Assembly (NCBI GenBank): GCA_043799545.1
Contig: JAZDNO010000025.1
Span: forward strand, 1-55,952
Direction: 5' to 3'
DNA length: 55,952 nt
From: Methanobacteriota archaeon
GTDB taxonomy: Archaea; Thermoplasmatota; Thermoplasmata; SG8-5; DAIRED01
In this document: piece after piece, positions 1-20,600 of the stretch
How the letters are laid out: the number at the start of each line of letters is the position of its first letter
Numbering within the stretch: position 1 is the stretch's first letter
Notes under the pieces: generated by a model
The model's database searches: none
What the model was told of the DNA's origin: nothing
What the model saw: the letters and a program-made list of their open reading frames with translations, nothing else
Made by a program: the position numbers and the translations under genes

Positions 1-3000
1 TTTGTCCGGCGCCATCAGGTTCGCGTCTATCATCGCGCTCGTCAGGTACGTCTGCCCGCCGTCGTACTGCTCGACGCTCTGGACAGTCGTGCCTGAGACA
101 TCACCCTTGAACATGGCGACCGTGTAGCCCGCATCGTCAGACGGGAAGCCAACGAGGTTCCAGCCAGCCTTCAGGGATATCGCGGTCGAGACGGGCTTGC
201 TGTACCCGGCTCCGCCCACGCATATCTGGCCGTCGCCAACCACCGTGACGTAGAGCCATACGCCCATCTTCGTGTCGACTGCCGTCAGGTCGTTCAAGGC
301 CGAGTTCCAGGTTGTGTAGTACTGCTTCCACGGGTCGGTCAACGAGTTCGGATTGTACCACATCGCGCGGGTCCACTGGACCAAGCCAAGGCCGCCGTTC
401 GCAAGGTCTGTCAAAGCGCCCGGCATGGTTGTCGGTCCGGAGATGTTCACTGATACGAGGTTCCATCCGACGTGGTCTGCGGTTATGTTCTGCCAGACCG
501 TGCTCGTCGGTGAGCTGAGGTATGGCTGGACGTTTGACTGCGTGTCCTTGTAGTCGAAGTGCGCGCTCACGGTGCCAGATGGCGTATATGTGATGGCCAC
601 GTTCAGGTAGTCGACGCTGGACCCGCCCCTGGCACCGCTGTTGTAGACTCCCCAGAGGATTACGCCTCCAGAGATGTAGTCGGCCCAATTGGAGGCGATT
701 GCCCTTGTCATCGTCTGTTCCACGTTGGCGGCGAAGGCTGTCGTTGCTCCTACGGCGTCCCAACTAGACGCGACGGCGTTCCAGGCATACATCGTGCCAG
801 TTCCGGCAACGGTGAACGAACCCTCGAAGGTCAGCGAAATGCCGGATATGACTGCCGGGTTGACCGCAGTCACGAACGAGCACTTCACGAAGGTCTCGTC
901 TCCCACCGGCGGGTTGGCACTCGGGCCCGCCCTGATATCGTTGGATGTCGACGCTGCGGTGTAGTATGCGTCCGTGAACTCTGTGGCACTGTTGGGCGTT
1001 GTCAGCTCAGAGCCTGCGTTGCTGTCGACCACGGTGAACCACACGTCGTGCGGCCCGCCTGCGGCCGTCGTGCCAGCTGTCGTCAGAGATTCGGCGTTCG
1101 GCACTGAGGTCACGTGAACCCATAGTTCGACGATGATCCCCTGGCCGTCTGGTATCGTGCCCGCGAGCGTGTCAGTCCAGGTGAACAGGTGCGGTGCGCT
1201 GGTGAAGTCGAAGACATCCTCCGTGTCGTATATCGTGGTGTCGAGCGTGGTCCCTCCCGAACCCTTGACGATTGCATAGAGCACTCCGTCGCCGAGGTTC
1301 TTCGAAGCCGAACCGTAAACGTTGAAGGTCCATGAACCGCCGATGTTCCTGCCGGTGTAGGTGCTCGTCGTCCTCCAAGTGCCGATTAGCGATTCCCCTG
1401 CAGCCGTTATCGAGGCCGTGGACTTCACGTTGGGCGTCAGCTCCACAGGCATCATGTTGAGATCGTAGCTGCCGGAGACTGTTTCGACCTGCATGAACCA
1501 ACGGTCGTCAATTGTGTTGTCCACGGAGAAGATGTAGTTGGACACGTCCTCTCCCATCAACGGGTAGCTGTCAGTCACCCTCACCCTAACGAGATAGTTG
1601 ACGCCGTCTGCAACGGATGCGGTGTTCCACGTGCAGGCTCCATCGTTGTTGTTGAGCGCGCTCTCGATTACTGTCCATGTCGAGCCGCCGTTGGCGCTGT
1701 ATTCGATTGTGCAGTCAAGCGTGTTGGCCGCATCTGTGTAGTCCGTGGCTGTCCATGTTATCACGTAGTTGCCGCTTATCACGGTCTCTGGCGTGTTGGG
1801 CGCGGTGACGAACACGCTTGGTCCGCCTTCGTTTATCTGGAAGGTGAACTGCTCGTATCCGCCCCAGTTACCCGCGGCGTCGCGAGCGTGGACGAACACT
1901 ATGTGCGAGCCCTGAGCGATGTTGGCCACGTATGTTCCGGTGACGTCCTCCAGCGGCGTGTTGAATCCTGTGTCCGCAGTGAAGTCTACCCCTGCATCGT
2001 TGGCGCCTGTCGCGTCAATGAAGTATTCGGCCTGCGCAATGTTGGAGTTGCCCTTCGAGCGGTCGTCGGCCTGCGCCTTGAAGGTGATTGTGTTGCCCTG
2101 GCCGCCCGGCAAGGGGTCCACCTTGATGCTGCCAGCCACTATGACGGGGCCTGTCTTGTCCCCGGCCACTCCGTTGTTCACAGTAAAGTTCGCATCAGAG
2201 GTGTCGAAGGCCTTCAGTGTGGTTCCCTGCGCCAGGATTTTTACCCTGTAGCTTTCGCCGTTGGGGTACACTGGGATGCCTGCTGCGGTTCTGGCTGTGT
2301 TCCACGGATAGGAGGTCGCCGTTCCGGCGAGGCCGGAGGCTTCAACGACATAGGATTGGCCCCCGTCCTTGCTTATCTGCACCTGCTGGCTGACGGCGTT
2401 GGCCACGGTCCAGGAAATGGTCTGTGTTCCCGCCCAGTTCTGGCCGCCGTTCGGGGTGGTCAAGCTGACATCCGGGTGGTCCTCGCCCATCAGCCACTGG
2501 ATGGTGCTGTCTGCAATCCACGCCCTGTCGACATCCATATCGGTGCCGAAGATGTGCCCGGCTGTTCCGAACGTGCCGTCGTCCTGTATCATGGCGTGTG
2601 CGAAGGCCTCGTATGCGAGCTTGTAGTCTGCGCCGGTGTATGCGATAGAGCCCGTGTTGCCGCCGGCCGCATTGATTGAATACGCCCAGCCAGACGGGTT
2701 TTCGGCTCCGGTTCCGCGCGTTATGTCGTCGGGCCAGAACCTTGCCGTTCCGTAGATGTCCTGCTCGAGGTCCTGGGGCGAACCGGTGAAAGCCGTGCTG
2801 ATGGCGTGGGTTGTCGCGACTATGTGGAATCCGCCTGTGGCCAGCTCGTTGCCAGTTGTGCCGGTGTTGTCCGCGGAGTCCCCGTTAAACGTCGCGTGCA
2901 TGTAGGTCTGGAACCAGGTTGGATCCGGCGGGCTTCCCGCATAATTGTACATATCCCAGCCGATGTCCTGTCCTGTAGCGTAGAACTTCTGAACCCCCGC

Positions 3001-6000
3001 CTGGTTTAGCCAGGATTGGATTAATGCCCTCTCGGTCAGGCCGAACTGCGGGTAGCCCTCTCCGACATCCCAGTAGACGACCTTTGCCGAGTTCATGGCG
3101 CCCAGCGTCGGCAAACCATACTTTATGGTTTCCCAGACCGTGAAGCTCCATCCGTAGTACCCGAGCGAGAGCCTCCAGTCGTCGACCTGCTGGTCGCTCG
3201 AGGCTATGTCGCTGTGCTCCTGGATGATGAGAACGTCCGGGTTGTCGATGGTCGTGAACATGTAGTGGTCCCCTCCGTTCGTGTCCCGGGTGGTGACTCC
3301 GCCGATGGAAACCGACTGCACGTCGAAGTAATAGTTCGTGAACCCGGTGAGGCCCGTTATCGGGACCTCATGGGTCAGGACCATGTCTGCATCGAGCGCC
3401 GAGGTGGAACCGAGAGCGCCCGTGAGACCGTAGAATACTTGGCTCGTCGCCGGGACATCCGTGTCCCACTGGACGATTCCAGCGGTGTTGGATATGTCCG
3501 TGACGCGGACGTTGGTTATCTTCGGGCTGCTCATCAGCGTGGTGACGTTTGCGTATGAGTTGTGCGCCGGGCTCGCATCCGCGTACCTGACGCTTATCGT
3601 CCCATCGTCCTCGATGCTGATTGCTCCGTTGCCGCTGACTGGCGTCAGCGCGTTGACGGCCATCGTGGTCGTCCACCTGCCGGTCGCCGCAAGGGCGAGC
3701 GCCTTGGTTTCGATGTCGCCCGTGCTGCTCGTGAGTGTCACGCTCGCGCTAGCGGCGTTCGTGTCCTGGACCTCGATGGTCATTGTGTCGCCAGGTTTGT
3801 AAACCATCTTGTCGGTCTTGACCCAGCCGTAGCCATCGTCGAAGTTGGCCGCGATGACGAGTGCGAACGGCTGCGGACCCTTTGGAACCGATTGCGCGTA
3901 GACACGGATTGTGTATACACCGGCTGTTGGCGCGGTTATAAGGGCGCACTCCACCGGGTTCAGGTGGTCGTATCCCGCTGGGTTCGTTGGGTCGGATTCC
4001 CTGCTGGTCGCTCCGTAGTTGTTGCCGTAGTATATTGAACCTGTCGGACCGACAACAGTAAGGTCAAGGTCGTTCACCAGGTGGCCGGACGTTGCTGTGG
4101 TGCCCGGGAAGTCGGTGTAGACCATGGTGATTTCCAATGGCGTTCCGGCTGCAACACTGACCTTGTATTCCCTCTCCTGGCCCTTGATGAGGCCGGCCTT
4201 GTTGTCGTCGGACCACACCTCGCGCGCGTCGCCGCTGAAGTAGAGCGTGTCGCTCGTGTCAACCATCCCCCAGCCCTGGTCCATGTTGGGATAGGCCATC
4301 GAGTGGCCGTTCAGGCTGTACGGATGCACGTTCGTATACGTTCCGGTCGTGGCGTCCTTCGCACCGTTTATGAGCGTCGCTTTGATGATGGCGTTGCTCG
4401 GCACGAAGCCGTTCCCGGCAACCTTTGTCCCTGTGATTGCCCACCCCTCTCTGTAGTACTGGGATATGAGCGCGCTGTCGCCCAGCGTGGCGGGCGAGGA
4501 CATGCTCGTTCCCTGCATGAGTTGGTAAGTTGTGTCAGCTACGCCATCCCTTGTGCTGTCGGCCAGCGCAGAATTCATCCCGCTCCAATCGGTGAGGCCG
4601 TCGCCTGTCGCGCTGATGTCGGGCTTCAGCCTGCCGTCGTTTGTCGCCCCGTAGCTGCTGAACACTGATGTCTGCTGCCAGTTGGCTCCCGCCCTGTGGG
4701 ATCCCACTGAGACGACGTTCTTGCCGGTTGCTGGCGGAGTCGTGGTGGTGTTGTATGCCGGACCTCCGAATAGCAGTGCCTCCCTGTCGTTACCATTGGA
4801 GAAGAATATCTGGAATTCCTTGTTCGTCCACATGTACCAGTCCGAGTTCAAGGAGTCCTCGGAGTATGTGCCTTCCGAGAAGGTTCTGGAATCGTCGTTC
4901 GTGTCGCCGTCGCTGTCGTACGTGCACGATACTCCCCAGCTGTTGCTGGCGAGGGATGCCCCGTCGCCCTTCTGGAGGGCGTACATGGTCTTGAGGTCCT
5001 GGGGGATTCCTCCCAGCGTCCTGTCGTTGGTGGTGCTTCCGTCGTCGGACATGCCGATGTCGCAGAACGAGACCTTCGCCTCGTAGGCCATGCCGTACCT
5101 GTCAGCTGCGACGCTCCCGACGTACGCACCGTTGCCGACCGCTATGCCCGTCACGTGCGAGCCGTGTCCCGAGCCAATGGAGGGGTTGCCTCCGATATAA
5201 TCGACCTTGTTGTCCCCGAGCTGGTGGTACCCCAATACCTTCCTGTGGGTCGGAGACGAACCGGTCCAGTCGGACGGCGTGTAGCCGGTCTGCCTGAAGT
5301 GGTCGTGGTCCGTGTTGAGGCCCGTGTCGGCCACTGCGACGACAACCCCTTCGCCGTGAAGGCCCGCGGTCCAGACCGGCGTGCTTCCGGAGACCTTGGT
5401 CTGCTCGGTCCATGCCGTGTCCGCGAGCATGACTTCGCTCGGGAAGTACGGCAGGACATATTGCACGTTGTTGACGTATGCGAGCGCCCGGATGCCGTCA
5501 TGCGACACCTCGGCGCGCACGCTGTTGCTGGACTCCGAGACTCCGAGAACCTTGCCGCCCGCCTTCTGTATCATGGCGGCCACGTTGTGCGGGTTCTCTC
5601 CGTCCTGGAGCATTATTGTAACCTGGACGTTGTCGCTGCCGAGTGCGAGCGACTTCGCCTGCTGGTAGAGGTTCTCCCAGTTGATGAAGTTGAGCGCGTC
5701 CCCACATATCATGCCGGACTTCAGCTCGGCTCCGTTGAGCAGGCTGCCCTGGATCTTGAACGCGGGCTGGTAGATTCCGACGTACTGCACGCTCGGCATG
5801 GCCTCGACGACCGCCTTTGTGTCGGCGCTCATCTTGACCATGTAGGCGTTTACCGGGACATATGCCCCGACCTTTCCACCGGCTGCCTTTATCTGGGCGA
5901 CCCACATCTCGTCAACCACGTCGTTGAACTGGACGAGGTAGTATCCCTTGACGCGCTGGTCGTAGGAGGCGATTTTCATCGTCTCCGGAACGCCTGTCAA

Positions 6001-6207
6001 ACCCATCCTCGAGTCGAACGCATTCTGCCCGAGCATTATCATCCGGTTGCCCTTGTAATAGGTGTTGGACGGCGCCCTGAGGGGCTCCGAGTTCGTTTCG
6101 GTCCGGGTTCCCCATGCGACGAATGCTCCCGCTGAAAGGACCATCGCCACAACAAGCGCTATTACAAGCCCCTGGCTCACAATCTTTTTCCTGTTTTCTT
6201 TGCCCAA
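1..6207 (-). CDS. Large secreted S8 (subtilisin, KP-43-like) serine peptidase with C-terminal Ig/FN3-like domains; 3' end lies beyond the window
   Basis: Not in the ORF track because there is no stop inside the window. The frame with codons ending at positions divisible by 3 was open wherever I translated it (1-60, ~3000, much of 1500-6207). TTG start at 6207 after GGAGG; signal peptide (LVIALVVAMVLSAGAFVAW). Motifs: VAVADTGL (Asp 5326-5328), GHGSHVTG (His 5164-5166), FSNGN (oxyanion), QGTSMSSP (Ser 4504-4506), NDLDL..GN...NPVE C-domain, WNLVGFP near the left edge. Confidence 0.9.
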   Translation of the reverse strand, partial: MGKENRKKIVSQGLVIALVVAMVLSAGAFVAWGTRTETNSEPLRAPSNTYYKGNRMIMLGQNAFDSRMGLTGVPETMKIASYDQRVKGYYLVQFNDVVDEMWVAQIKAAGGKVGAYVPVNAYMVKMSADTKAVVEAMPSVQYVGIYQPAFKIQGSLLNGAELKSGMICGDALNFINWENLYQQAKSLALGSDNVQVTIMLQDGENPHNVAAMIQKAGGKVLGVSESSNSVRAEVSHDGIRALAYVNNVQYVLPYFPSEVMLADTAWTEQTKVSGSTPVWTAGLHGEGVVVAVADTGLNTDHDHFRQTGYTPSDWTGSSPTHRKVLGYHQLGDNKVDYIGGNPSIGSGHGSHVTGIAVGNGAYVGSVAADRYGMAYEAKVSFCDIGMSDDGSTTNDRTLGGIPQDLKTMYALQKGDGASLASNSWGVSCTYDSDGDTNDDSRTFSEGTYSEDSLNSDWYMWTNKEFQIFFSNGNDREALLFGGPAYNTTTTPPATGKNVVSVGSHRAGANWQQTSVFSSYGATNDGRLKPDISATGDGLTDWSGMNSALADSTRDGVADTTYQLMQGTSMSSPATLGDSALISQYYREGWAITGTKVAGNGFVPSNAIIKATLINGAKDATTGTYTNVHPYSLNGHSMAYPNMDQGWGMVDTSDTLYFSGDAREVWSDDNKAGLIKGQEREYKVSVAAGTPLEITMVYTDFPGTTATSGHLVNDLDLTVVGPTGSIYYGNNYGATSRESDPTNPAGYDHLNPVECALITAPTAGVYTIRVYAQSVPKGPQPFALVIAANFDDGYGWVKTDKMVYKPGDTMTIEVQDTNAASASVTLTSSTGDIETKALALAATGRWTTTMAVNALTPVSGNGAISIEDDGTISVRYADASPAHNSYANVTTLMSSPKITNVRVTDISNTAGIVQWDTDVPATSQVFYGLTGALGSTSALDADMVLTHEVPITGLTGFTNYYFDVQSVSIGGVTTRDTNGGDHYMFTTIDNPDVLIIQEHSDIASSDQQVDDWRLSLGYYGWSFTVWETIKYGLPTLGAMNSAKVVYWDVGEGYPQFGLTERALIQSWLNQAGVQKFYATGQDIGWDMYNYAGSPPDPTWFQTYMHATFNGDSADNTGTTGNELATGGFHIVATTHAISTAFTGSPQDLEQDIYGTARFWPDDITRGTGAENPSGWAYSINAAGGNTGSIAYTGADYKLAYEAFAHAMIQDDGTFGTAGHIFGTDMDVDRAWIADSTIQWLMGEDHPDVSLTTPNGGQNWAGTQTISWTVANAVSQQVQISKDGGQSYVVEASGLAGTATSYPWNTARTAAGIPVYPNGESYRVKILAQGTTLKAFDTSDANFTVNNGVAGDKTGPVIVAGSIKVDPLPGGQGNTITFKAQADDRSKGNSNIAQAEYFIDATGANDAGVDFTADTGFNTPLEDVTGTYVANIAQGSHIVFVHARDAAGNWGGYEQFTFQINEGGPSVFVTAPNTPETVISGNYVITWTATDYTDAANTLDCTIEYSANGGSTWTVIESALNNNDGACTWNTASVADGVNYLVRVRVTDSYPLMGEDVSNYIFSVDNTIDDRWFMQVETVSGSYDLNMMPVELTPNVKSTASITAAGESLIGTWRTTSTYTGRNIGGSWTFNVYGSASKNLGDGVLYAIVKGSGGTTLDTTIYDTEDVFDFTSAPHLFTWTDTLAGTIPDGQGIIVELWVHVTSVPNAESLTTAGTTAAGGPHDVWFTVVDSNAGSELTTPNSATEFTDAYYTAASTSNDIRAGPSANPPVGDETFVKCSFVTAVNPAVISGISLTFEGSFTVAGTGTMYAWNAVASSWDAVGATTAFAANVEQTMTRAIASNWADYISGGVILWGVYNSGARGGSSVDYLNVAITYTPSGTVSAHFDYKDTQSNVQPYLSSPTSTVWQNITADHVGWNLVSVNISGPTTMPGALTDLANGGLGLVQWTRAMWYNPNSLTDPWKQYYTTWNSALNDLTAVDTKMGVWLYVTVVGDGQICVGGAGYSKPVSTAISLKAGWNLVGFPSDDAGYTVAMFKGDVSGTTVQSVEQYDGGQTYLTSAMIDANLMAPDK

Positions 6208-6478
6208 AGAATTTGCCTCCCATTCTATTGTAAAGCGTTTTAGCATGGGACACGAGGTCCCATACAATGCTATTCACTTATAAAGTCGCTCTTATTTATA
6301 TTTATCGGAGTAATTTACAACGCATCGGTCATTTTTCGATTTATATATCTCCAGGATTTCGCTTTGCGAATTGAGCGACGGGTCAAATTGATGGATAAAT
6401 TATCATAAGTGTTATATATGGTGTTTCGCCTTGCCCATAGTGCATGCCGCAGAAGGCGTGAATATTGGAGGCTTTGAA
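6208..6478. promoter_or_regulatory. Divergent promoter region between the two S8-family genes
   Basis: AT-rich with TATA-like boxes (ttataaag ~6279, tatttatattta ~6295, ttatatat ~6412) and the perfect palindrome TGGGAC-N5-GTCCCA at 6246-6262. Confidence 0.6.
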
Positions 6479-9400
6479 ATGGCCAGATTGTCCGTTGGGA
6501 TTATGAGCGCATGGATGGCTTTGCTCGTGGTGTTGTCGGGGATATCCGGAATAGCCACGACTTGGGGGGGCGGAGATGGCGCATTCGGTCCGCACGTCGA
6601 CACCGAGTGGCAGACCGGTCATTCTTCCATAGACGACGCTCTGGGCGAGCCAACTGGCGCGGCGGGGGAAACGTTCCAGAAAATGACGCGCGTGGTCGTT
6701 GTCACCACCGATGTTGGGGAACTCACCAGCTTCCTATCGAAATATAAATACGAAGGCTTGATTGGCTCGAAGACAAGCTCGAGGAAGGGCGTCGCCTTCC
6801 CGATACTCACTCTGCCGAAGGAGATTATCTCCGACCTTGAAAGCAAGCCTTATATACTCGGCGTCTACCCGTATTCCGAGGGCACCGAAACCGGCATCAA
6901 GTCAGCCGAGCGAGCGGACGCGGCGGGGGAGCCGACAGACGATTCGCTTAGCGCCGGCCAGATGGACGAAATCATGAGGTTCCTGGGCGCGCCTTATTAC
7001 CAGGGAGCGGAAGACGCGTGGGCACTGGGATATTCCGGAGACGGAGTCAACGTTGCAGTCGTGACTGGCGGGGTCGATTTCGGGCACGAGGACCTGATGG
7101 GCAGGTACGCAACCTCCGGCAGCGGCGATTACGCGGGCTGGCCGATAGCCTTCGACGGCTCGTCGCTCAGCGCATACATCGCAGACGGGCCGCAATCCGG
7201 AACGGAAACGCCCAACGGCGACAGCTGGTACGTCAACACAAGCTCCACGGACATGAGGATACTCCATACGGTCATCGTCGACGGCACGAACGATTTCTGG
7301 GTTGAGATGAACACGCACAAGACTGCGAACCAGACATACGACCTGAACGAGACGACCGAGGTCAGGGGGAGGGACCCCACGAACGATGTGAGCCCGAGTG
7401 AGTTCGACCTTGGCAGCTCTTATGTGGCCCAGGACGCGAACAAGTGGTTCCTCGGTTTCGATGTAACCAAGTCGTCCGAATTGGCACCTCGCGTGAAAAA
7501 CGTCCGTTACGGAATCTACATTGACACGGATGGCGGAGCCTCAACGTCGGGGGCGACGATCGACCCCATGGGTAACAAGGTGGAGACAAACAGCACGAAC
7601 AGGCCAGAGTACGCAATCTACATGACTCACTACGGCGAATACTGGGGGGTCAAGGGGACCATAGTCAGATGGGTGAAGGGCGCGGGCGGCGACTGGGGCA
7701 CGTACCAGACGAACGTGGACTGGGGCGTCGACGGGAACACTGGCAAGTGGAACAGAAACAACACGTTCAGGATAGACAGCACCGGAGTCACCATCGACTA
7801 CTGGGAGGTTCAGAGCGACCTCCAGGTGTGGAGCAAGAACGACACTGTCTTGAAGTCGTCGGTCAGGGTGTTCGGGTGGAACGGGACGGCGTGGAACTAC
7901 ACGTCGCTGCTGACTGACACAGTCAACAAGACCGGTTTCAAGGGTGAGTTCACCATGAAAAGCGGTTTCGTAGAGATGTCCATACCGAGGGCCTCGCTAC
8001 GGAACGCGAACACCTTGTCGATGGCCGTAATGTCTTTCGGGCTGAACGTATCCAGGCCGCAGGATTCGATACCCAAGGAATTTCCCAAAGTCTTCAACGC
8101 CACGCCGGACTGGGGCAAGGCCATCGTCACCCTTACGAACTACACGGTCGTGGGCGTCCCGCATTCCTACGTTACCGCGGGCATTCCCTCTGCCGGGGGC
8201 AAGATGCGCATAGGACTGCACCCCGACCAGAATCTCATAACATATCATTATGGAAGACCTGTCGCAGTGCTCCTGACGGACAGCCTAGTTGCGAACGTCT
8301 ACGATTCGGTTTACGTCGATTTGGACAACGATAAGAACTTCTCTGACGAGCGCCCGATGCAGAGGTACGGGGCGTACAACGCCGCCCTCATGATAGGTCC
8401 GCAGTGGGGCACGGTGCGCTACTCCAACAACACTTTACTGCACAACAACACCTGGTATGATATTAAAAACGTCGTGACCGAAGTGCTCTGGTCGAACGAG
8501 ACGCTTAAGCAGAGCGCGGTCGGCGGCGAAACGGTATTCTACGTTGGCAACGAGTCCGCGAACGCAGCGACCCTCGTCGTCAACAGGCCCGCGAGCCACG
8601 CCGTCAAATTTGACAACTCTTCAGTTTACACATGTGACGGAACGGAGACCGCACCATTCGACTTCCCGCTGGGAAACAGCGATATAGTCGAAGTCGGCAA
8701 CATCTCGATGGAGATACCGTCCACCGAACCGAACGCTGGCTGGTACAATCTGAACTACTCGCATTTCAGCATAAACAACGCCACGGGCGTGGCGACGTTC
8801 AAGGGGCACCCGAGTCTTGTAAACGACTGGAACAACCAGTCGTCTGGCCCGGTATACACGCACAACATACCGATAAACGGAACGGATACGGTGAATTTCT
8901 ACCTTCCATACTCGCCCGTCGTTTCCTGGTTGTTGCTGGAGGACGGGTCATCGACCCTCGCATGCTACGAGGAGACGGTGTTGGGAGGGTGGTTCCCCTT
9001 GGATTACAGCAACGGGGACTTCACGATAGACAACGCGACTGGCCTGGTATCGATATCCCCCTTCGACGATGGCGAACCCGGGGAGCTCGTACCCGCTGGA
9101 ATGGTGGTTTACATGAATTTCAGCTATTCTGTCGATCCGGTTTCGGGGACAGAGTTCTCTGCTGACTACAGGTATACGCAGCCAGTCAACCCCGCGTACA
9201 CATTCGACCCCATCACGCGCAAGCTGGAGCTCGCCGAAGGGCTTGTGGCGGGGGACACGTTGTCAGTCATGTATTCTTACAACGTGGTGAACCCGGCTGC
9301 TGCGTCGGACCGGTACGGTTTAATCTACTACAACGGACAAAACAGGACGGTGGAGCTCAGAGAATGGGCTGCGAGCAAGGACATCGACGCCGATGGCGGC

Positions 9401-12400
9401 AAAGGGGACGGCAAGGCCTTCCCGGACCTGTCTGGGGGCATGGCATACTTCATATCGAGGGCGTCGGAGGTGTCCAATGAGGCGCTGACGTTGCTTGAGA
9501 ACGGCACATATGCGATTCTTGGCCATACGAACATTGTAAACAACTCATGGACAGTTCGTGTCAACAGCTCGGTCTACGGCCTCGACAAGGTCAAGGTAAA
9601 CACCGAAACTGGCCGTATGGACTTCTCCCCGGCGCTCTGGCCGACGTCGACAGTCTTCGTGGATTACGATTACGACGGCCTGGCGATACCATATTCCCAG
9701 GCGTATTGCGAAAGGAACGGTGGAATAGACAACGTCATCCCAGCAAACGGCGACATGGTCGCCCTCACCGGGAGCTTCGACCTTGATTATTCCCAGGGCA
9801 CAGAGATTGCGACGGCCATAGTCGGTGGCGGCGTCAGCGTCGACGGCAACGGGGAGAGCCTTTTGAAGGGCATGGCCCCGAATGCACGGCTCATAAGCAT
9901 CAGGGCGGATCCGTTTTCCGCCTGGTATTTCGCGGTCGAGGGTTACGACGGGAACGTCACCACCATCAACGATCAGGCGCAGATCGTAGCGATAACGTCG
10001 GTGTACGGACTCAACGGCGACGGATTCGATATATACTCCCGGGCTGTGGACTACATCAGCACAGTCTACGCCGCAGGGCGCACTGTCTTCCTTGCGGGGA
10101 CGGGCGACGCCGGCCATGGGTACGGCACGATAAACTCGCCAGCATCCTCACCAGGGGTCATCTCCGTCGGGCAGGGAACGAACTTCGCGTACAGGAACTA
10201 CAAGCCCAAGGCGCCCGACTCGTTGGCGCGCGCCTACGCGGACGGCGGCCCGAACGCGAGGCAAGGCAACGTCCTGCCCAGCTCCGGCCGCGGGCCGAGC
10301 ATGCTCGGATACCCGGAACCGGATGTGATATCAACAGGAGCGTTCCTATTTGTCGGAACGCCCTTGAACGGAGACCAGGATGCCACGTCGCCGATGGACC
10401 TCCAGTGGGAGGGTGGCCAGTGGGCGTGGGACCTCGTGAGCGGTTCTTGGCTGGCCGGATCGACGGCCGTCGGCGCGACTGCGCTGGTCATGCAGGCTTA
10501 CAAGGAGGCTCACGGCACGTTCCCGACCATCTCGATGGTCCGCAGGATACTCGCTTCGTCTGCGGACAACCTCAACTACGACCCGCTGTCTCAGGGCGCG
10601 GGGATGGTCAACGCGCTGCGCGGGGTGAAGATGGCATCGGACAAAGACGGAATACTCATGGATACTACTTTCTGGACGCCCGGCGAATACCGCGGCACGA
10701 CATACGACGCTTTCGTGCACCTCATGAAACCAGGGCAGAACGCCACCAAGAATGTCAACCTGACGAACGTGAACCCAACACTGGCCTCGAACGTTAAAGT
10801 CTACGATGCGGTTTTCATGAAGTTCGACTCTTTGGACTTCGACATCAACATCACGAAGAACTACGACGACGACCGAGTGCCCGGATTGATCAACATCGAA
10901 CCGCTCGTCCCGAGAGGGACCGAGCTGCTGAGGGCCTCCGTGTTTTCCCACGCTTCCGCCTCGGGGATGAAGAGCTACATGGCCGAGTTCTTCGACTGGA
11001 CCGACACCAACGACAACGGCAAAATGGATTTCACAGGCGAGCAGAACAGGGTGACTTACAGCATCGGCACCAACGCGATGGAGATAAGGCTCCGCGACCC
11101 GCTGGGCGCCTACCATGACGGAATCGGCCTTCAGATAAAGGATTTCGGCGGGGACGGCACGGTCCTGAACGATTGGCATGTGCAACTGGCATTCTACACC
11201 CAGGTCGACTGGAGCTGGCTCAGCCTGCAGAGCACGCCATCATCCATCGATGCGGGCAAGTACGATATCTACGGCATGACTCTTGCGGTTCCGGCAGGAA
11301 CCCCGATGGGCTCGTACGAAGGCGCGGTGTACACGATCGAGCAGATGCCCACGGAAAACGATATCGCGGTCGGCGTGGGCACATACGTCAAAAGCGACAG
11401 TTTCTGGGATGTAAGCGAGGGCATACCGAACCCGGACGAACGCTACGGTACCTGGTTCACGCCCAGGTATGCGCGCGTCGACAACCTTACGGTGCGCGGG
11501 GGCGAAGTTTCGATAGTCGAGGGAAGCACAACGGTGTACTGGAACGGTTCCGCTCTCAACGAGGGAACGGACTATTCGATTGCCCCTGGTGGCGAGATTA
11601 TGTTCTTCTACGACATCCCGCTTGGAGCCCAGCCATTCTTCAATATCAGCTACCTGGTCCTGGAAATCGATCCGGCCACGGGCAATACGATTGAAAACCC
11701 CGCAACGTCCGCGAAATTGAACATGGGAAACCTGAAAAAGGGCAACTACACGGTCTACAAGAACGGGGCGGAATTCCAGGAGAACAATCCAGTCAGCGAG
11801 GTCGTGATGACCTCACTCGGAGGGGAGACCAAGGTCAACCTGGACTATGGAGGTGTGACCAGGCAGTCGGCGACCGTTTTCCTGAACGGAACTGCGATGC
11901 CGCAGGAAGGTGGGAGCGTTGTGGACGAGGCGGTAGTATCGCCTGCCTTAGGCGGGGAAACGTACGCGAACCTCTCCAGGGGCGCGCTCGTGCCGGGGTC
12001 GGCCACGATAGTCAAGAACGGCGACGTGCTGCCGCAGACCGATGAAATATCGATGTACGACAAGGAGCAGGTTGTTGGATTGAAGGCGACGGTGACCACG
12101 GTGACGGACGAGGCGCTGGCGCTGGGAGCGCCCAACATGGCCAAGAGCATATGGTACGAAAGCGGTTCATGGTATGGGCTGCTAAATATCAACTCATACT
12201 ATGCAGATAATTACAAGATTATCTCATACAACATGTACGCCAACGGAGTGTCTCTCACGGACGGAGTCAACGTCACGATGAACATCGCGAACGGGACGGG
12301 CGTGACGATTTACGGCCTGTTCAGGTTGAACCCCGTCGGCCTCGATCCGTTCAACGACACGTTCAAGGTAACATACAAATACTACGACATGACGCTGAAG

Positions 12401-15400
12401 GGCGGTTTCCTTGAGCACAGGAACATCGTGCCAGAGAGCTATTCGATATACCTCTCGGGCGCAGAGATGAAGACCGGGACGTTCCAGCTCAACCTGGATA
12501 CTGGCGCCCTAAACCTTAGCGATGCGCTCGGGCCCGAGGATTATATCGAGGCCGTTTACAAGTACATCACATACACCCTCGACGCGAAGACTGGAGTCCT
12601 CGAGCTGTCAGACGCGCTGGAAGCTGGCGATACGATTGATGTGAGCTACGAGTACCAGAACTACACGGTCGACCTCGTCCGGGGAATAATCTACTTCTCA
12701 ACCCCGCTCAAATATAATGTGAATGTTTCTGTGGACTACTCGTACGTGCAGTACACGGTGGACGCAATCGAGGGGATTATCAAATTCTCAAAGCCTCTGA
12801 TGCCTGGCGAATCCGTTTCTTGCGGGTATTGGCACTACCTTAACGTCCTTCCAATCCTCGTCAACATCGGCGTTGACGGACCCAACTTTAACATAGGCGG
12901 CGGAGGCGAGACCGGGCTGCTCTTCGGACCGAACGAGGTCACAAGCGGTTTCGGCTCCGGGGAGGGCGACCGGAGGTTCTACTACTTCGACGTTCTGGAG
13001 CAGGGCTACATGGAGACTACCAACCCCAACTACAAGCTCTTCACGGAGCTGAAGTGGGACAACAACCTCACGGACGTCAACGTCCAGGTGTTCGGCGGCC
13101 GGCAGAGCCTGCAGGAAATTCCTGGCATGGGCAGCGACACCTTCTCCAGCGCGCGGTACGGCCCGCACGGCATTTCCCGGGTTGGCACGAGCGACGAGAC
13201 CGCCGGGTTCTTCACGACCACCAACGGGCCGGGCGAAACCATCGCCCTGCCGTACTCCTCGGGCCTCAACGTGCTGGCATTAAACACGGTTGGGTTGAGC
13301 GGCGATGCCCCTACGGAGTTGTTCACCGGGACTGTCGGCACCATGTACATCGACCAGCCCGCCGTGTCGGTCGAGACGAACAAGCTCATCGGCGGCACGA
13401 GCCTTTACATGCATTCCAGCGTACCATGGGACGGTATCGGAGGTTTCGCCTCCGGTCCCTCCGCGCCCAAGGAATACAGGAACATGACTGTCACGCAGGA
13501 CGACCCGAACTGGGCTAACTACGTCAGCTTCGAGGAGCAGCTGTCCTCCGGGGGCACGACGGTCGCCGTGGAATTGAAGGACTGCCTGATATTCCAGGTC
13601 CATCTCATGGGGCAGGTCGATTTCGGTTACAAGGATGTGGTCGACCTTGACCTGGGGATATTCCTGGACGGTTCCAACGACCAGCCGAAGGATGGCAAAA
13701 CGCAGGTCGAGGAGTTCGTTGCCATGGACGCGGACGGGGATGCGGACGAAACTGTCAAACTCATCAAGCCCGTGGACGGAACGTACCTTATCAGGCCGTT
13801 CGGCTTCACCCTGAAGCTGGACCCGGCTCACTTCGACCTCGACATCACGATTGTCCAGGGCAAGGGCTTTGCGGTGAGCGGGGGCATGACCGATGTCATC
13901 CCAGCGTTCACGCCGACTGACATCGGACTTTCTTGGGTGCTGCCCGGCGACACGAAGGAAGGGAAGCTCCTGGGAGCCATGTACATGGGACCTGCGGACG
14001 CGCAGATGTGCCTCCTGGTTCCGATAGAGATAGAGTACGACGTGACCCCGCCGTCTGTGTCCGGCATAACCCCGGCCGACGGAACATACACCACCGACAG
14101 GACGCCATTGATATCAACTTCATTCATCGATCCAATCCTCGGGAAGATAGATCCAGATTCCATTGACCTGAAGATTGACGGGGAAAGCATGCGAGCCTCG
14201 GCGATCATCAACGCCAATTACGGAGCGATGTCGTCCGATGTTTCTACGCTGGGTTACTGGACGGCTACAATCAGCCTGACGCCCCAGGTGGATCTGCCTG
14301 ATGGCGGGCACAGCATACAGGTTTCGGTCTCGGACAAAGCCGGCAATGTCGAGACTGTGGACTGGGTTATCACCGTGGACACGCAGGCTCCAGAACTGCA
14401 AATAGCGAGCCCTCCCAGCGACATATACGTCAGCGACCTCGGCGGCGTAACAGTCAACGGTTCCGCAACGCCTGGAAGCGACATCTTGGCTTTCAACGGC
14501 GCGAACGAGGTTAAGACGAGCCTGGACGCGAACGGAGAGTTCGGATTCGCGGTCACGGACCTGGTCGACGGCGCGAATGAAATCAAGGTCAGGGCGACGG
14601 ATGCCGCTGGCAACATGGTTGAAGTTGTAAGGCGGATATACTTGGACACGACGACGCCCCGGATAATTTCAATAGCCAGCGAGAGTGGCTCCCTTACAAA
14701 CCGCCCCAGCACTAGGTTCACCGGGAAGGTGGACAAGGCCGGGCAGATGGCATTGAACGGAATCCCGATAGCGGTATTCCCCGACGGCACGTTCGAGCAC
14801 ATCGCGCTGCTGACAGAAGGAGTGAACGTCTTCGAGTTCCAGTTCACGGACCTCGCGGGAACTGTCGTCAAAGCCTGGAAGAACGTGACCAAGGACACCA
14901 TCGCTCCGGAGATATGGATAACCGAATCGCAGGCGCGATCGACCAACGGCACGTACGTGCTGGCCGGGACAACAGATGCAGATTCGTCGGTCGGGGTGAA
15001 CGGGAAGCCGGTCGTCCTCGACGCGGACGGTGGCTTCGTCAAGAACATCGATCTCAGCTACGGAATCAACACAATCGTTGTCACGAGCAAGGACACCGCG
15101 GGCAACATCGCAGAGAACCGTGTGATTGTGTATTACGACATCGGACCGGGTTTGGACTTGGGTGGAATGCTGTGCATCACGGTAATCGCGATGTGGTTCG
15201 TAGTCTGGTTGCTGGTCGGGATATGGGTGTACAAGGATGCCCGCAGCAGGGGAATGAGCGGAGCCTTATGGATGCTCATCGTGCTGTTCCTCGGGCTTCT
15301 CGGCATCATCTTGTACATGATAATACGGAAGAAACACCCGAAAATCCCGCAGGAGCCTCCGGTAACGCCGCCGGAAGCGGATGCGCAATCTCCAGAGGCT

Positions 15401-15715
15401 AGCCCGGAACCCGTCGAGCAGGAAGTTGCCGGACCGAGCGAGGGCGAGCTTCTGCCCATGCCGCCAGTAGTCGAAGAACCGGCGGTACCCGAGGCCCCGC
15501 TGGACGAACCGATGCCCGAAGCTCCAACCGCAGAGCCGGCTGCCCTGGAACCCGAGGCCCCCAAGCCCGCCGAACCCATCGCCGCGACCGAGCCCATCGA
15601 GGAAATGGACCCGCTGAAGGCAGAGCGCATCGCGAAGCTCGACAAGGCCCTGGCAGACGGTAAGATATCGAAGGAGCTGTACGAGAAGAACATGGCGCGC
15701 ATCAAGAGCCAGTAA
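6479..15715 (+). CDS. Giant (~3078 aa) membrane-anchored pyrolysin-like S8-fold protein, predicted catalytically inactive
   Basis: ORF track gives 6431..15715; ATG 6479 follows GGAGG and begins a signal peptide. S8 scaffold motifs are recognisable (G.GVNVAV..GVDFGHEDL, GTINSPASSPGVISVG, SSGRGP, PDV...G, QGAGMVNA) but the catalytic positions are substituted. C-terminal Ig-like repeats, hydrophobic helices, Pro/Glu-rich linker, SHOCT-like end. Many N-x-S/T sequons. Confidence 0.9.
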   Translation: MARLSVGIMSAWMALLVVLSGISGIATTWGGGDGAFGPHVDTEWQTGHSSIDDALGEPTGAAGETFQKMTRVVVVTTDVGELTSFLSKYKYEGLIGSKTSSRKGVAFPILTLPKEIISDLESKPYILGVYPYSEGTETGIKSAERADAAGEPTDDSLSAGQMDEIMRFLGAPYYQGAEDAWALGYSGDGVNVAVVTGGVDFGHEDLMGRYATSGSGDYAGWPIAFDGSSLSAYIADGPQSGTETPNGDSWYVNTSSTDMRILHTVIVDGTNDFWVEMNTHKTANQTYDLNETTEVRGRDPTNDVSPSEFDLGSSYVAQDANKWFLGFDVTKSSELAPRVKNVRYGIYIDTDGGASTSGATIDPMGNKVETNSTNRPEYAIYMTHYGEYWGVKGTIVRWVKGAGGDWGTYQTNVDWGVDGNTGKWNRNNTFRIDSTGVTIDYWEVQSDLQVWSKNDTVLKSSVRVFGWNGTAWNYTSLLTDTVNKTGFKGEFTMKSGFVEMSIPRASLRNANTLSMAVMSFGLNVSRPQDSIPKEFPKVFNATPDWGKAIVTLTNYTVVGVPHSYVTAGIPSAGGKMRIGLHPDQNLITYHYGRPVAVLLTDSLVANVYDSVYVDLDNDKNFSDERPMQRYGAYNAALMIGPQWGTVRYSNNTLLHNNTWYDIKNVVTEVLWSNETLKQSAVGGETVFYVGNESANAATLVVNRPASHAVKFDNSSVYTCDGTETAPFDFPLGNSDIVEVGNISMEIPSTEPNAGWYNLNYSHFSINNATGVATFKGHPSLVNDWNNQSSGPVYTHNIPINGTDTVNFYLPYSPVVSWLLLEDGSSTLACYEETVLGGWFPLDYSNGDFTIDNATGLVSISPFDDGEPGELVPAGMVVYMNFSYSVDPVSGTEFSADYRYTQPVNPAYTFDPITRKLELAEGLVAGDTLSVMYSYNVVNPAAASDRYGLIYYNGQNRTVELREWAASKDIDADGGKGDGKAFPDLSGGMAYFISRASEVSNEALTLLENGTYAILGHTNIVNNSWTVRVNSSVYGLDKVKVNTETGRMDFSPALWPTSTVFVDYDYDGLAIPYSQAYCERNGGIDNVIPANGDMVALTGSFDLDYSQGTEIATAIVGGGVSVDGNGESLLKGMAPNARLISIRADPFSAWYFAVEGYDGNVTTINDQAQIVAITSVYGLNGDGFDIYSRAVDYISTVYAAGRTVFLAGTGDAGHGYGTINSPASSPGVISVGQGTNFAYRNYKPKAPDSLARAYADGGPNARQGNVLPSSGRGPSMLGYPEPDVISTGAFLFVGTPLNGDQDATSPMDLQWEGGQWAWDLVSGSWLAGSTAVGATALVMQAYKEAHGTFPTISMVRRILASSADNLNYDPLSQGAGMVNALRGVKMASDKDGILMDTTFWTPGEYRGTTYDAFVHLMKPGQNATKNVNLTNVNPTLASNVKVYDAVFMKFDSLDFDINITKNYDDDRVPGLINIEPLVPRGTELLRASVFSHASASGMKSYMAEFFDWTDTNDNGKMDFTGEQNRVTYSIGTNAMEIRLRDPLGAYHDGIGLQIKDFGGDGTVLNDWHVQLAFYTQVDWSWLSLQSTPSSIDAGKYDIYGMTLAVPAGTPMGSYEGAVYTIEQMPTENDIAVGVGTYVKSDSFWDVSEGIPNPDERYGTWFTPRYARVDNLTVRGGEVSIVEGSTTVYWNGSALNEGTDYSIAPGGEIMFFYDIPLGAQPFFNISYLVLEIDPATGNTIENPATSAKLNMGNLKKGNYTVYKNGAEFQENNPVSEVVMTSLGGETKVNLDYGGVTRQSATVFLNGTAMPQEGGSVVDEAVVSPALGGETYANLSRGALVPGSATIVKNGDVLPQTDEISMYDKEQVVGLKATVTTVTDEALALGAPNMAKSIWYESGSWYGLLNINSYYADNYKIISYNMYANGVSLTDGVNVTMNIANGTGVTIYGLFRLNPVGLDPFNDTFKVTYKYYDMTLKGGFLEHRNIVPESYSIYLSGAEMKTGTFQLNLDTGALNLSDALGPEDYIEAVYKYITYTLDAKTGVLELSDALEAGDTIDVSYEYQNYTVDLVRGIIYFSTPLKYNVNVSVDYSYVQYTVDAIEGIIKFSKPLMPGESVSCGYWHYLNVLPILVNIGVDGPNFNIGGGGETGLLFGPNEVTSGFGSGEGDRRFYYFDVLEQGYMETTNPNYKLFTELKWDNNLTDVNVQVFGGRQSLQEIPGMGSDTFSSARYGPHGISRVGTSDETAGFFTTTNGPGETIALPYSSGLNVLALNTVGLSGDAPTELFTGTVGTMYIDQPAVSVETNKLIGGTSLYMHSSVPWDGIGGFASGPSAPKEYRNMTVTQDDPNWANYVSFEEQLSSGGTTVAVELKDCLIFQVHLMGQVDFGYKDVVDLDLGIFLDGSNDQPKDGKTQVEEFVAMDADGDADETVKLIKPVDGTYLIRPFGFTLKLDPAHFDLDITIVQGKGFAVSGGMTDVIPAFTPTDIGLSWVLPGDTKEGKLLGAMYMGPADAQMCLLVPIEIEYDVTPPSVSGITPADGTYTTDRTPLISTSFIDPILGKIDPDSIDLKIDGESMRASAIINANYGAMSSDVSTLGYWTATISLTPQVDLPDGGHSIQVSVSDKAGNVETVDWVITVDTQAPELQIASPPSDIYVSDLGGVTVNGSATPGSDILAFNGANEVKTSLDANGEFGFAVTDLVDGANEIKVRATDAAGNMVEVVRRIYLDTTTPRIISIASESGSLTNRPSTRFTGKVDKAGQMALNGIPIAVFPDGTFEHIALLTEGVNVFEFQFTDLAGTVVKAWKNVTKDTIAPEIWITESQARSTNGTYVLAGTTDADSSVGVNGKPVVLDADGGFVKNIDLSYGINTIVVTSKDTAGNIAENRVIVYYDIGPGLDLGGMLCITVIAMWFVVWLLVGIWVYKDARSRGMSGALWMLIVLFLGLLGIILYMIIRKKHPKIPQEPPVTPPEADAQSPEASPEPVEQEVAGPSEGELLPMPPVVEEPAVPEAPLDEPMPEAPTAEPAALEPEAPKPAEPIAATEPIEEMDPLKAERIAKLDKALADGKISKELYEKNMARIKSQ

Positions 15716-17629: not shown

Positions 17630-20600
17630 GTGGCTTTAATGAAAAACAAAGAATTCAGGAAGAGTGGTGTTGGCCAAATAGAAAAATGCAGATATTATGC
17701 AGTCGCTTTAATCCTTATCTTATCAATAATACCAATGCTTGGTAATAACGTTAAAGGATATGAATCGCATTCGCCGATAAGGATAAATAGGAACTCCGAT
17801 TTCACTGAAGCAAATGGTGTTTCTAGTGGCAATGGAACTGAAGCTAACCCCTACATAATAGAGAATTGGGACATTAATGGAACAGGATATGGGTGTTGCA
17901 TCTATATTGGAAATACCACAAGCTATTTCAATATTGTAGATTGCTACTTACATCATACGACTGGTGTAGGTAGTAGCTTTTACTGGAACTCGGGAATTGT
18001 CTTTTACAATGCTAGAAATGGCTACATCGAAAATGTTACTTCGTATCACAATAATGGCCATGGTTTTTATCTTGATAGAAGTGATTATAATATATTCGAA
18101 CATTGTAACGCTTCCGAGAATGGGCGAGCGGGATTTAGTATGTGGTATTGGTCGGACCATAATTTTATATGGAATTCAAGTGCGATTGATAATTCCTGTG
18201 GTACCACAACATATGATGGGGGATTTTCATTCGTTGTGTGTAATAACAATGAAATAGATAACTGTAACTCAGATGAAAATTATAATGGAATTAAGATATA
18301 TGAAGCATATAGAATCACAATCTCAAATTCAACGATAGCTGAAAACACATATGGCGCATATATAAATTTGCCAGCATCGCATAATATTTCCGTGAGAAAT
18401 TCATCCTTTGAGCATAACACATATGGGTATTATGCCTATAATAGCAGATATTGCTCACTTTCTGGCTGCAATATCTCAAATTCAACATCATATGGAATCT
18501 ATTTGTATCTTAGTCGATATTTTAACATAGATAATACTACACTTTGGAATCACCAAAGCAACTACCTTTCAATTTATGCTAATGTAAAGGATGATGCAAA
18601 TCATACGATTTCATCATCAAATAAAATAAATGGTAAAGATGTATATTACATTTTTAACCTTGTGAATTTATCCTATGCCAATAAAATAGCAGGGCATTTT
18701 ACACTCGCGTATTGTGGCAATATCTCGTTGACTAACATTACTGTCAGTAGGGGTGATTCTCTGAATTTATGGTATACAAGTAACTCATCACTTGACAATT
18801 GCACATCTGAGAATAATACCTTCGGTATACGACTTACCAAAGTCTCGAATACATTTATTGAACAATGTTCGATTATGAATAACAGTTTTAATGGTATTCA
18901 TGCGGAATCAACTGATAATTGCACCGTACGGTCATGCACAATAAAAAATCATAAAGTCGCACCATATGGTTTGGGAATACGATTTGTAGGTGGTAAAAAT
19001 AACCAAATTGAAAATAATAATGTGTCGTTTAACAGGGTTGGAATACACGGTGGCTATCCGTCATTTCAAAATAATTGCATACAAAATAATAATGTTTGGA
19101 ATAACTCAATTTATGGAATCAACACAGAACATGGTGATTCAAACAATGTTATAAAAGAAAATATGGTCGCGCATTCCCCTGGGGGTGGTATCGTTCTTGA
19201 ATATATAAACACGGCTCCACCTCTTAATGACTCAGTTTTAAACAACACGATTATTGGTACAAATGGAAATAATAAAGGATATGTCGGAATTAAAATATCT
19301 AACGCTCGTGACGGCGGTACTCAACCAACACCAATGTCAAACAAGATAAATATATCCTCTAATTCAATAATTGATTGTTCATATGGCATAATGTTAGCTT
19401 ACTCAAAAAATAATAGTATAAAAGAAAATACAATAAAGAACTGTACCAATAGCTTGTACGTTATTTACCAATCAGCAAATAATGCAATATACCATAATAA
19501 TCTTTACAACTCTGCGTATGACAGTTCTGGCTTTAATTCATGGGACAACGGTTATCCATCCGGCGGGAACTACTGGAGCGACTACAACGGAACCGACGAA
19601 TACTGCGGCCCCGGACAGAACCTAATCGGATGGGACAACATCGGCGATACACTCTATGACGACATCGACGGATCCGCCAACGCTTTTGATGGATATCCAC
19701 TGATGAGGCCTTGGCCATGCGAAACGAGGTCAAACAGGGACGTAATTCGAATCAAATCAAACGACGATTTCGACGATGACCATGGCGTCAGTGAGGGCAA
19801 CGGTTCGTCTTCAAATCCCTACGTCATCGAGAATTTTATAATAAACGGTACGGGATATGGGTATTGCATATATATCGGGAATACGACGGACTACTTCGTC
19901 ATCAGGGATTGTTATCTCCACAATGCTAGTGGCGGCTATTACTATAATGCTGGAGCAGTGCTTTACAACGTGTCAAACGGCATGATAGATAACTCAACTT
20001 TTGCCTACAGTTACAATGGAATCTACATTTACGGCGATTCAGACGAAAATACTATACAGAACAACACCGCTATACTTAACGAATATTCTGGGATAATGCT
20101 GGTAGACGGATGCGGCAACAACGTAATTATTTATAATACCGCCACTTCTAACAGCTTTGTTGGGATTCATCTCTACGACGATTGCGATTTCAACACGGTT
20201 AGCTACAACAACGCATCATCGAACCTGTACGAAGGGATAATCCTTTCTTACTCTGATCATAACTTTGTCGAGGGGAACGTAGTTACCTTAAACAGCGAAG
20301 TTGGGATAGTATTGGACGAATCCGATTGGAACTCGATATCCGAAAACAACGCTTCCTCAAACGTATATCCTGGATTGTGGCTTACCGCAGCAGACAACAA
20401 CACGATAGATGGCAATGAGATTTGGTCAAACGGAGACTCGGCGATATATCTTGAACAATTTAACAACAATAACGTGATACTCAGTAACACGATTGGAACG
20501 AATGACTGTGGTGTATATATTGACCCTGAGGATAATGACCACAACTCGATATACCACAACGATTTCCTGGACAATACCGTCCAGGCATACGACGATGGGG

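Follow-up and report, generated by a model that had tools for sequence, protein, structure and literature searches.

A giant archaeal subtilase homologue, predicted to be non-catalytic and stably linked to a divergent secreted subtilase

Introduction

Pseudo-subtilases that are paired with active subtilases are already known from the Csp proteins, where the pseudoproteases CspC and CspA are needed for activation of the CspB protease (PMC7200643, PMC12880746) and where restoring the catalytic triad in the pseudoproteases does not allow activity to be regained (PMC7200643). A different arrangement is found in Staphylothermus marinus, in which STABLE, a protease of the subtilisin family, is bound to the stalk of tetrabrachion (PMC5744192). 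Here we describe a locus that has features in common with both. It lies on a 55,952-nucleotide stretch of DNA from a Thermoplasmata archaeon (contig JAZDNO010000025.1, hereafter the window) and consists of a gene for a 3,078-residue, predicted surface pseudo-subtilase of the S8 family, P0001 (positions 6479..15715 of the forward strand, stop codon included), and of a divergently oriented gene for a giant S8 protease with intact catalytic residues (1..6246, reverse strand). The central finding is that a constrained S8 protein, apparently dead and with the features of an anchored glycoprotein, is stably linked to a live S8 protein that is predicted to be secreted.

The likeness to the Csp system lies in the retention under selection of mutated proteins of the S8 fold, which work genetically with an adjacent active S8 (PMC7200643, PMC12880746). 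Here too a dead S8 is linked to an active one, in 24 of 24 collected pairs, and the N-terminal region of P0001 has prodomain-like features, although the latter are a lead only. The Csp proteins differ in that they are soluble, approximately 550 residues in length, found in the bacterial spore and free of inserts, while P0001 is a predicted archaeal membrane-anchored glycoprotein of 3,078 residues with an insert of roughly 800 residues in its S8 domain and a partner from a different S8 subfamily. Because P0001 is no nearer in structure to the Csp proteins (Z scores of 22.9–27.2) than to other subtilases (Z score of 28), we consider the relation to be one of analogy and not of orthology.

Tetrabrachion resembles the proposed arrangement in being an archaeal glycoprotein that is anchored at the cell surface and keeps a protease of the subtilisin family there (PMC5744192). 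Its coiled-coil stalk is, however, not a subtilase homologue, and binding has been shown there while for P0001 it is proposed. No relation in either sequence or fold was found between tetrabrachion and P0001.

The third point of comparison is with TPP II and the pyrolysin-type subtilases. The profile of the P0001 family matches TPP II (3lxu) with an E-value of 1.8e-11, P0001 has its insert between the catalytic Asp and His positions, just where TPP II carries one, and the long C-terminal beta-domains of P0001 include a jelly roll of the kind found in Tk-SP and KP-43. In contrast to P0001, which is without all four catalytic residues, these enzymes (and also Tk-SP, KP-43 and C5a peptidase) are active, and the P0001 insert is about four times longer and carries a domain similar to carbohydrate-binding modules. 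A preliminary description of the window had called P0001 pyrolysin-like. The position of the insert and the long C-terminal extension agree with that name, but it holds only loosely, as a search of the family profile against the Protein Data Bank (PDB) gives KP-43/SubHal, Tk-SP, TPP II and C5a peptidase as the closest solved relatives, with KP-43/SubHal and Tk-SP closest of all.

Results

The P0001 reading frame is unbroken for 3,078 codons, from an ATG at 6479 to a TAA at 15713–15715, and has orthologues that we number P0002–P0018. A GGAGG sequence lies 7 nucleotides 5′ of the ATG, and this GGAGG-N7-ATG arrangement is kept in a comparison with the related locus L008. Each of the four catalytic positions holds a different residue from that of an active subtilase. 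The Asp position is Thr196 (codon ACT, 7064–7066), within VAVVTGGVDFGH, and the His position is Gln1106 (codon CAG, 9794–9796), within DYSQGTEIA. The position of the oxyanion Asn is Asp1210 (codon GAC, 10106–10108), within AGTGDAG, while the nucleophilic Ser is replaced by Trp1324 (codon TGG, 10448–10450), within SGSWLAGS. The preliminary description had claimed that all of the catalytic residues were replaced, and the codons are exactly as it gave them; the assignment of the columns was confirmed by Pfam, by phmmer, by an alignment of the Ser-motif segment, and by the family alignment together with its profile search against the PDB.

When sub-ranges of the protein were scanned, the Pfam S8 family PF00082 matched residues 1107–1375 at 42.6 bits, well above the cut-off of 21.8, over profile positions 57–286, so that the match covers only the His-to-Ser half of the S8 domain. 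Scans of the whole protein with Pfam and NCBIfam report no S8 domain, which becomes visible only in the sub-ranges alone; the whole-protein Pfam scan misses it because the domain is both divergent and split. The statement that the S8 motifs are well preserved is therefore a relative one. For the other half of the domain, phmmer aligned the Asp-motif segment GVNVAVVTGGVDFGHEDL with GVKVAIIDTGVEYKHPDL of Vpr (E-value 7e-7), and also with furin, placing Thr196 opposite the catalytic Asp of both proteins. The GSWLAG segment was aligned with GTSLAA/GTSMAA of a lanthipeptide protease and TPP II. In a 32-sequence family alignment (A3), which was also searched as a profile against the PDB and matched KP-43/SubHal with an E-value of 1e-20, the Gln, Asp and Trp of P0001 fall in the columns that hold the His, Asn and Ser of intact relatives and of KP-43/SubHal. 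Read from its sequence, P0001 is an S8 homologue without the Asp-His-Ser triad and without the oxyanion Asn.

The two halves of the S8 domain are widely separated in the sequence, with 910 residues between the Asp motif (residue 196) and the His motif (residue 1106). The N-terminal piece with the Asp motif (7031..7264) is defined by the alignment with Vpr and furin and by superposition on Tk-SP, and the C-terminal piece with Gln1106, Asp1210 and Trp1324 (9686..10663) by PF00082, A3, the PDB profile and the comparison with P0002. An AlphaFold2 (AF2) model of residues 185–1384, built from a 32-sequence alignment with a mean predicted local distance difference test (pLDDT) score of 72.6, superposes on Tk-SP (3afg/9ues) with a Z score of 28 and a root-mean-square deviation (rmsd) of 2.5 Å over 262 residues, using both halves. 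The same model gives Z scores of 27.2 with CspB, 24.7 with CspA, 22.9 with CspC and 23.3 with TPP II (3lxu), and Foldseek matches the P0001 model to Tk-subtilisin with an E-value of 2e-8. In the model, the two halves thus reassemble into one subtilisin alpha/beta fold, and the structure prediction proposed for the core returns a retained subtilisin scaffold.

The homologues of P0001 are all giant proteins from metagenome-assembled genomes of Thermoplasmata, which is the level to which the source names place them. In trees of the S8 core, P0001 belongs to a fully supported clade of 16 sequences (16–19 rows across trees). Two basal members of this clade read D/G-K-S-A at the four catalytic positions, and the remaining members read T-Q-D followed by W, A or F, so it is the replaced residues themselves that are conserved while the former nucleophile position is variable. 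In a tree of 161 sequences the clade is nested within a larger one of 56 members (support 98), none of which has both His and Ser. One half of that larger clade has lost the His too. In the other, Asp and His are retained, Ser has given way to Asp, His or Glu, and the Asn has often become Asp. Among the family as a whole, His, Asn and Ser are retained in about 92 of 180 relatives, and the Asp-to-His spacing is at least 184 residues in every relative. The family is present in 18 of the 22 genomes of the order to which GTDB assigns the window, and the P0001 genome contains exactly two large-insert S8 genes, both of them dead.

A separate observation in the large sister lineage is a “DHDD” state, in which Asp and His are kept and both the Ser and the oxyanion Asn are replaced by Asp. 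It is seen in at least 14 cluster representatives, including P0031, P0036, P0039, P0062, P0064, P0078, P0079, P0093 and P0096, and could reflect metal binding or a different chemistry instead of simple inactivation.

The nearest orthologue, P0002, comes from another metagenome and has the identical T/Q/D/W set, from which it follows that the P0001 codons are not an assembly error. Between the two whole proteins the proportions of non-synonymous (pN) and synonymous (pS) differences are 0.24 and 0.66. In the C-terminal half of the S8 domain the identity is 81%, the highest of any region, with pN of 0.13, pS of 0.63 and a ratio of non-synonymous to synonymous rates (dN/dS) of about 0.11, calculated with a saturated dS (1.3–1.8). 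The alternative that P0001 is a recently decayed allele, or an artefact of sequencing or assembly, has next to no probability when set against the intact 9.2-kb frame, the same four residues in P0002, their fixation throughout the clade and a pN far below pS. The earlier proposal of a retained non-catalytic scaffold in place of a decaying gene is well supported by the same evidence, with the substitutions fixed across the orthologues and the S8 half as the most constrained region. The loss of the four catalytic residues is old, and the protein is under purifying selection.

Strong constraint on the S8 core, together with the non-random conservation of three of the four replacement residues (Thr, Gln and Asp), might also be expected if P0001 were still a hydrolase that used non-canonical residues, with Thr196, Asp1210 or residues from the insert as candidates. 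We regard this as very improbable. Trp, Ala and Phe all occur at the nucleophile position within the clade, which means that no reactive group is preserved there, and the His position holds Gln, Lys or Arg. At the level of the alignment, A3 shows no conserved Ser/His pair that could compensate. The failure of triad restoration to give activity in the Csp pseudoproteases (PMC7200643) also indicates that such scaffolds drift away from catalysis.

The neighbouring gene on the reverse strand (1..6246) runs out of the window at its end and encodes an S8 protein of more than 2,080 residues, starting at ATG 6246 or TTG 6207. Its motifs and its PF00082 match (E-value 9e-31) show intact Asp316, His370, Asn and Ser590, and its N-terminus is canonical and prodomain-like. 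The Asp-to-His spacing is 54 residues, and the partner is therefore assigned to a different S8 subfamily from that of P0001. The two genes are separated by a divergent intergenic region (6268..6478) containing two AT-rich, TATA-like blocks that are conserved in the alignment with L008 and may act as promoters.

An orthologue of this partner, with 46–62% identity, occupies the same divergent position at eight of nine loci of the T/Q/D clade, the exception being L013. The same pairing is seen in members of the sister dead lineages, namely for P0023, for P0036 (with one gene between) and on contig C14 of the P0001 genome. We examined 20 further loci from the order, 17 of which were informative for pairing; every large-insert S8 was dead, and a divergent S8 was present at 15 of the 17 and absent at L040 and L041. 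In the 24 pairs collected, which take in the eight paired loci of the T/Q/D clade and both pairs of the P0001 genome, the large-insert gene lacks the intact His+Ser combination in all 24 and the partner has Asp, His, Asn and Ser in all 24, with every partner matching a single N-terminal profile of 860 positions. Distance matrices of the dead and live families are strongly correlated (Mantel r 0.87, a value reached by none of 5,000 permutations), as expected for families that have diversified together. The intact large-insert relatives P0019, P0029 and P0024 have no S8 neighbour (3/3). The suggestion that P0001 may be a partner of the active S8 next to it is thus strongly supported, at the comparative level, by the 24 pairs, the co-diversification and the unpaired state of the three intact relatives.

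Genomes contain two to four such pairs, from which we infer that the module has been duplicated and has diversified as a unit. The second pair in the P0001 genome (contig C14, 1–14886) consists of C14b, which reads D-E-N-D, and C14a, which is intact. Over its C-terminal 750 or so residues, C14a shares 54% identity with the window partner and 66% with a third S8, encoded on contig C4, while the N-terminal 750–850 residues, which hold the prodomain and S8 region, show only 27–29% identity; this suggests an exchange of C-terminal regions among paralogues. At two loci from different genomes of one genus, an open reading frame of 733–738 residues with no S8 match lies between the dead and live genes in the orientation of the dead gene (L037:5949–8162, reverse strand; L038:6035–8233, forward strand).

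The two members of the pair end differently. In most dead proteins the C-terminus consists of a single transmembrane helix, followed by an acidic tail that closes with a conserved motif, while all 14 of the complete partners have an N-terminal hydrophobic segment only. In 13 of these 14 partners the C-terminus is formed by a module of about 50–100 residues with the pattern ..VEGF..PY..G.AYWV.V..W.V.W, for which no Pfam family was found. It is located at L011:3193–3400 (reverse strand) and at the C-termini of the partner reading frames in L030, L031, L036–L039, L044, L046, L048, L050, L051 and L053, and may be an undescribed archaeal domain for surface attachment or sorting.

P0001 itself has two hydrophobic helices (residues 2890–2953; 15146..15337), identified from Kyte-Doolittle peaks and resembling a PLDc_N hairpin, although the match to PF13396 of 18.5 bits is under the cut-off of 23.3. 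All orthologues compared show a single transmembrane helix at this position, so that with two helices the acidic tail and terminal motif of P0001 would sit across the membrane from those of its orthologues. The tail (15338..15712), recognised by composition and by orthologue comparison, is rich in Pro, Glu and Ala and closes with the motif ..KL..AL..GKISKELYEKN.., which is kept in 11 orthologues as well as in P0025, P0030 and P0040. The last 49 residues gave no match to the Pfam SHOCT family at E-values up to 10.

The remainder of P0001, all on the forward strand, is consistent with a large extracellular protein. Residues 1–30 (6479..6568) form a hydrophobic segment with a Kyte-Doolittle peak, probably a signal peptide. 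Residues 40–185 (6596..7033) appear prodomain-like from their nearest ESM Atlas clusters, CspB_prodomain and Inhibitor_I9, at scores of 0.92–0.94 that serve as a lead only; Pfam gives nothing usable for this region and BLAST finds no similarity to the prodomain region of the partner.

The nested insert of approximately 800 residues between the Asp and His motifs (7265..9685) is delimited by the 910-residue spacing and is modelled as beta-rich with stretches of low confidence; nothing usable was found in Pfam for residues 262–565 or 565–1080. Its first module (residues 262–561; 7262..8161) is a predicted beta-sandwich similar to carbohydrate-binding modules. Comparison with VIA-align gave Z scores of 16.0 with the CBM74 region of Sas6 (7uwu), 12.2 with residues 705–1020 of glucodextranase (1ulv) and 9.4 with CBM9 (1i82), and there is a weak ESM Atlas lead to Glucodextran_C (0.84).

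Downstream of the S8 domain, approximately 930 residues of PapD/MSP/Ig-like beta-sandwich domains (10664..13456) include short repeats. A second AF2 model covering residues 1385–2520 (pLDDT 76) is all-beta here, with generic Ig-like matches at Z scores of 10–12. Within it, residues 1989–2104 (12440–12790) form regular three-strand units of about 30 residues each, which coincide with YxY/TLD..TG..GD repeats and with weak Pfam DUF2460 matches. A jelly-roll domain follows (residues 2327–2461; 13457..13861) and resembles the C-terminal domain of Tk-SP and KP-43, with a Z score of 11.5 and rmsd of 2.1 Å over 98 residues against residues 420–518 of 3afg, a Z score of 10.1 against 1wmd and a weak PPC match (E-value 0.54). 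The ectodomain ends in an Ig-like array of one Big_13 and three Glucodextran_B domains (residues 2521–2884; 14039..15130), supported in Pfam by PF09136 (98.2 bits) and PF19077 (48.8 bits), both with a cut-off of 27.

There are 50 N-x-S/T sequons in P0001, compared with 26.5 ± 4.3 expected from shuffles. Of these 27 lie within the insert and only two within the S8 core. Together with the domain composition this points to a surface location and to glycosylation of the protein.

These same features raise the main alternative, that P0001 acts on its own in the envelope as a structural or adhesive glycoprotein, either S-layer-like or a glycan-binding adhesin, in which the dead S8 domain is a rigid building block and the adjacency to a protease reflects shared regulation of surface proteins with no joint mechanism. 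A giant all-beta ectodomain with Ig-like arrays, the concentration of sequons on the insert that resembles carbohydrate-binding modules, the Glucodextran_B domains, the several such genes per genome and the unpaired state of some dead members would all suit such a role. It would leave unexplained why a dead and a divergent live S8 occur together in 24 of 24 pairs against three unpaired intact relatives, why the replacement residues Thr, Gln and Asp are conserved and why conservation is highest in the S8 core. We consider this explanation possible but rather unlikely. Inhibitor, adhesin and receptor are possible sub-variants of the role of P0001.

Two further features are recorded for completeness. 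On a Thermoplasmata contig (L033:1–6188), a polymorphic-toxin gene of the RHS-repeat/SCP1201-like type and an Imm1 immunity gene adjoin the gene for the intact relative P0029. Within the window, positions 17630–20761 (forward strand) encode a 1,043-residue NosD/right-handed beta-helix protein and lie in a stretch with a GC content of 36%, compared with 55–60% in the flanks.

Discussion

The explanation that we favour, with a probability of roughly 0.55, is that P0001 is an anchored and non-catalytic partner of the secreted live S8. P0001 would be a heavily N-glycosylated, membrane-anchored protein at the cell surface of a Thermoplasmata archaeon, with a subtilase domain that is dead yet constrained. 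Its gene belongs to a conserved two-gene module, in which the divergent member encodes a predicted secreted subtilase that retains the triad, has a prodomain of its own and a conserved C-terminal module, and is without a membrane anchor. The two proteins would be expressed together and would interact physically or functionally, with the anchored dead protein docking, positioning or regulating the live protease at the surface, or presenting substrates to it. The candidate binding surfaces are the pseudo-active site with its conserved Thr, Gln and Asp, and the insert domain that resembles carbohydrate-binding modules.

Several points weigh against a partnership of this kind. The binding and co-expression of the dead and live proteins are proposed here from the comparison of genes, and the Mantel correlation of 0.87 is a measure of stable linkage and not of contact, because adjacent genes share a history of duplication. 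Since the loci belong to related genomes, they do not count as independent; the contrast between dead, paired genes and intact, unpaired genes may amount to perhaps two or three evolutionary events, and the intact controls in that contrast number only three. Dead loci with no detectable partner occur at L013, L040 and L041. The dead proteins P0009 and P0016 end in the C-terminal module of the partner type in place of a transmembrane helix; the module may consequently serve for surface attachment in general, and the partner would then need no dead anchor. The dN/dS values are rough, given the saturation of dS, and the possibility of a compensating triad was judged at the level of the alignment.

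A wider form of the partnership would be a multi-copy dead–live system throughout the order, in which cognate pairs have co-evolved as units to give several specificities per cell, and in which the pseudo-subtilase with its lectin-like insert binds the secreted enzyme and positions, activates or restrains it. Across the order, all of the large-insert S8 genes that we examined are dead, and a live S8 accompanies nearly all of them. We put this wider form forward tentatively and hold it with distinctly less confidence than the partnership itself. If true, it would represent a two-component apparatus for extracellular proteolysis or sensing that is undescribed in archaea.

While pseudoproteases that cooperate with an active homologue are known from a few systems, Csp among them, no description of a pseudo-subtilase from Thermoplasmata or from archaea in general was found in the literature searched. 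What was also not found there is the giant, membrane-anchored and insert-bearing archaeal version and its occurrence as a multi-copy module across an order; we found no pseudo-protease with an active homologue described in archaea, on the cell surface or at such a scale.

The family provides a natural series, from the loss of Ser to the loss of Ser and His and finally the loss of all four residues, which is useful for studying the evolution of pseudoenzymes. It also bears on how metagenomes with Thermoplasmatota are read. S8 homologues with signal peptides have been counted as “extracellular peptidases” by BLAST against MEROPS combined with SignalP (PMC12220078), and because about one in two giant S8 genes in these lineages is non-catalytic, such metagenomic counts overstate the capacity for protein degradation. 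Should the dead and live proteins act as a complex, wall-less or S-layer archaea would have in it a novel means of tethering or controlling proteolysis outside the cell.

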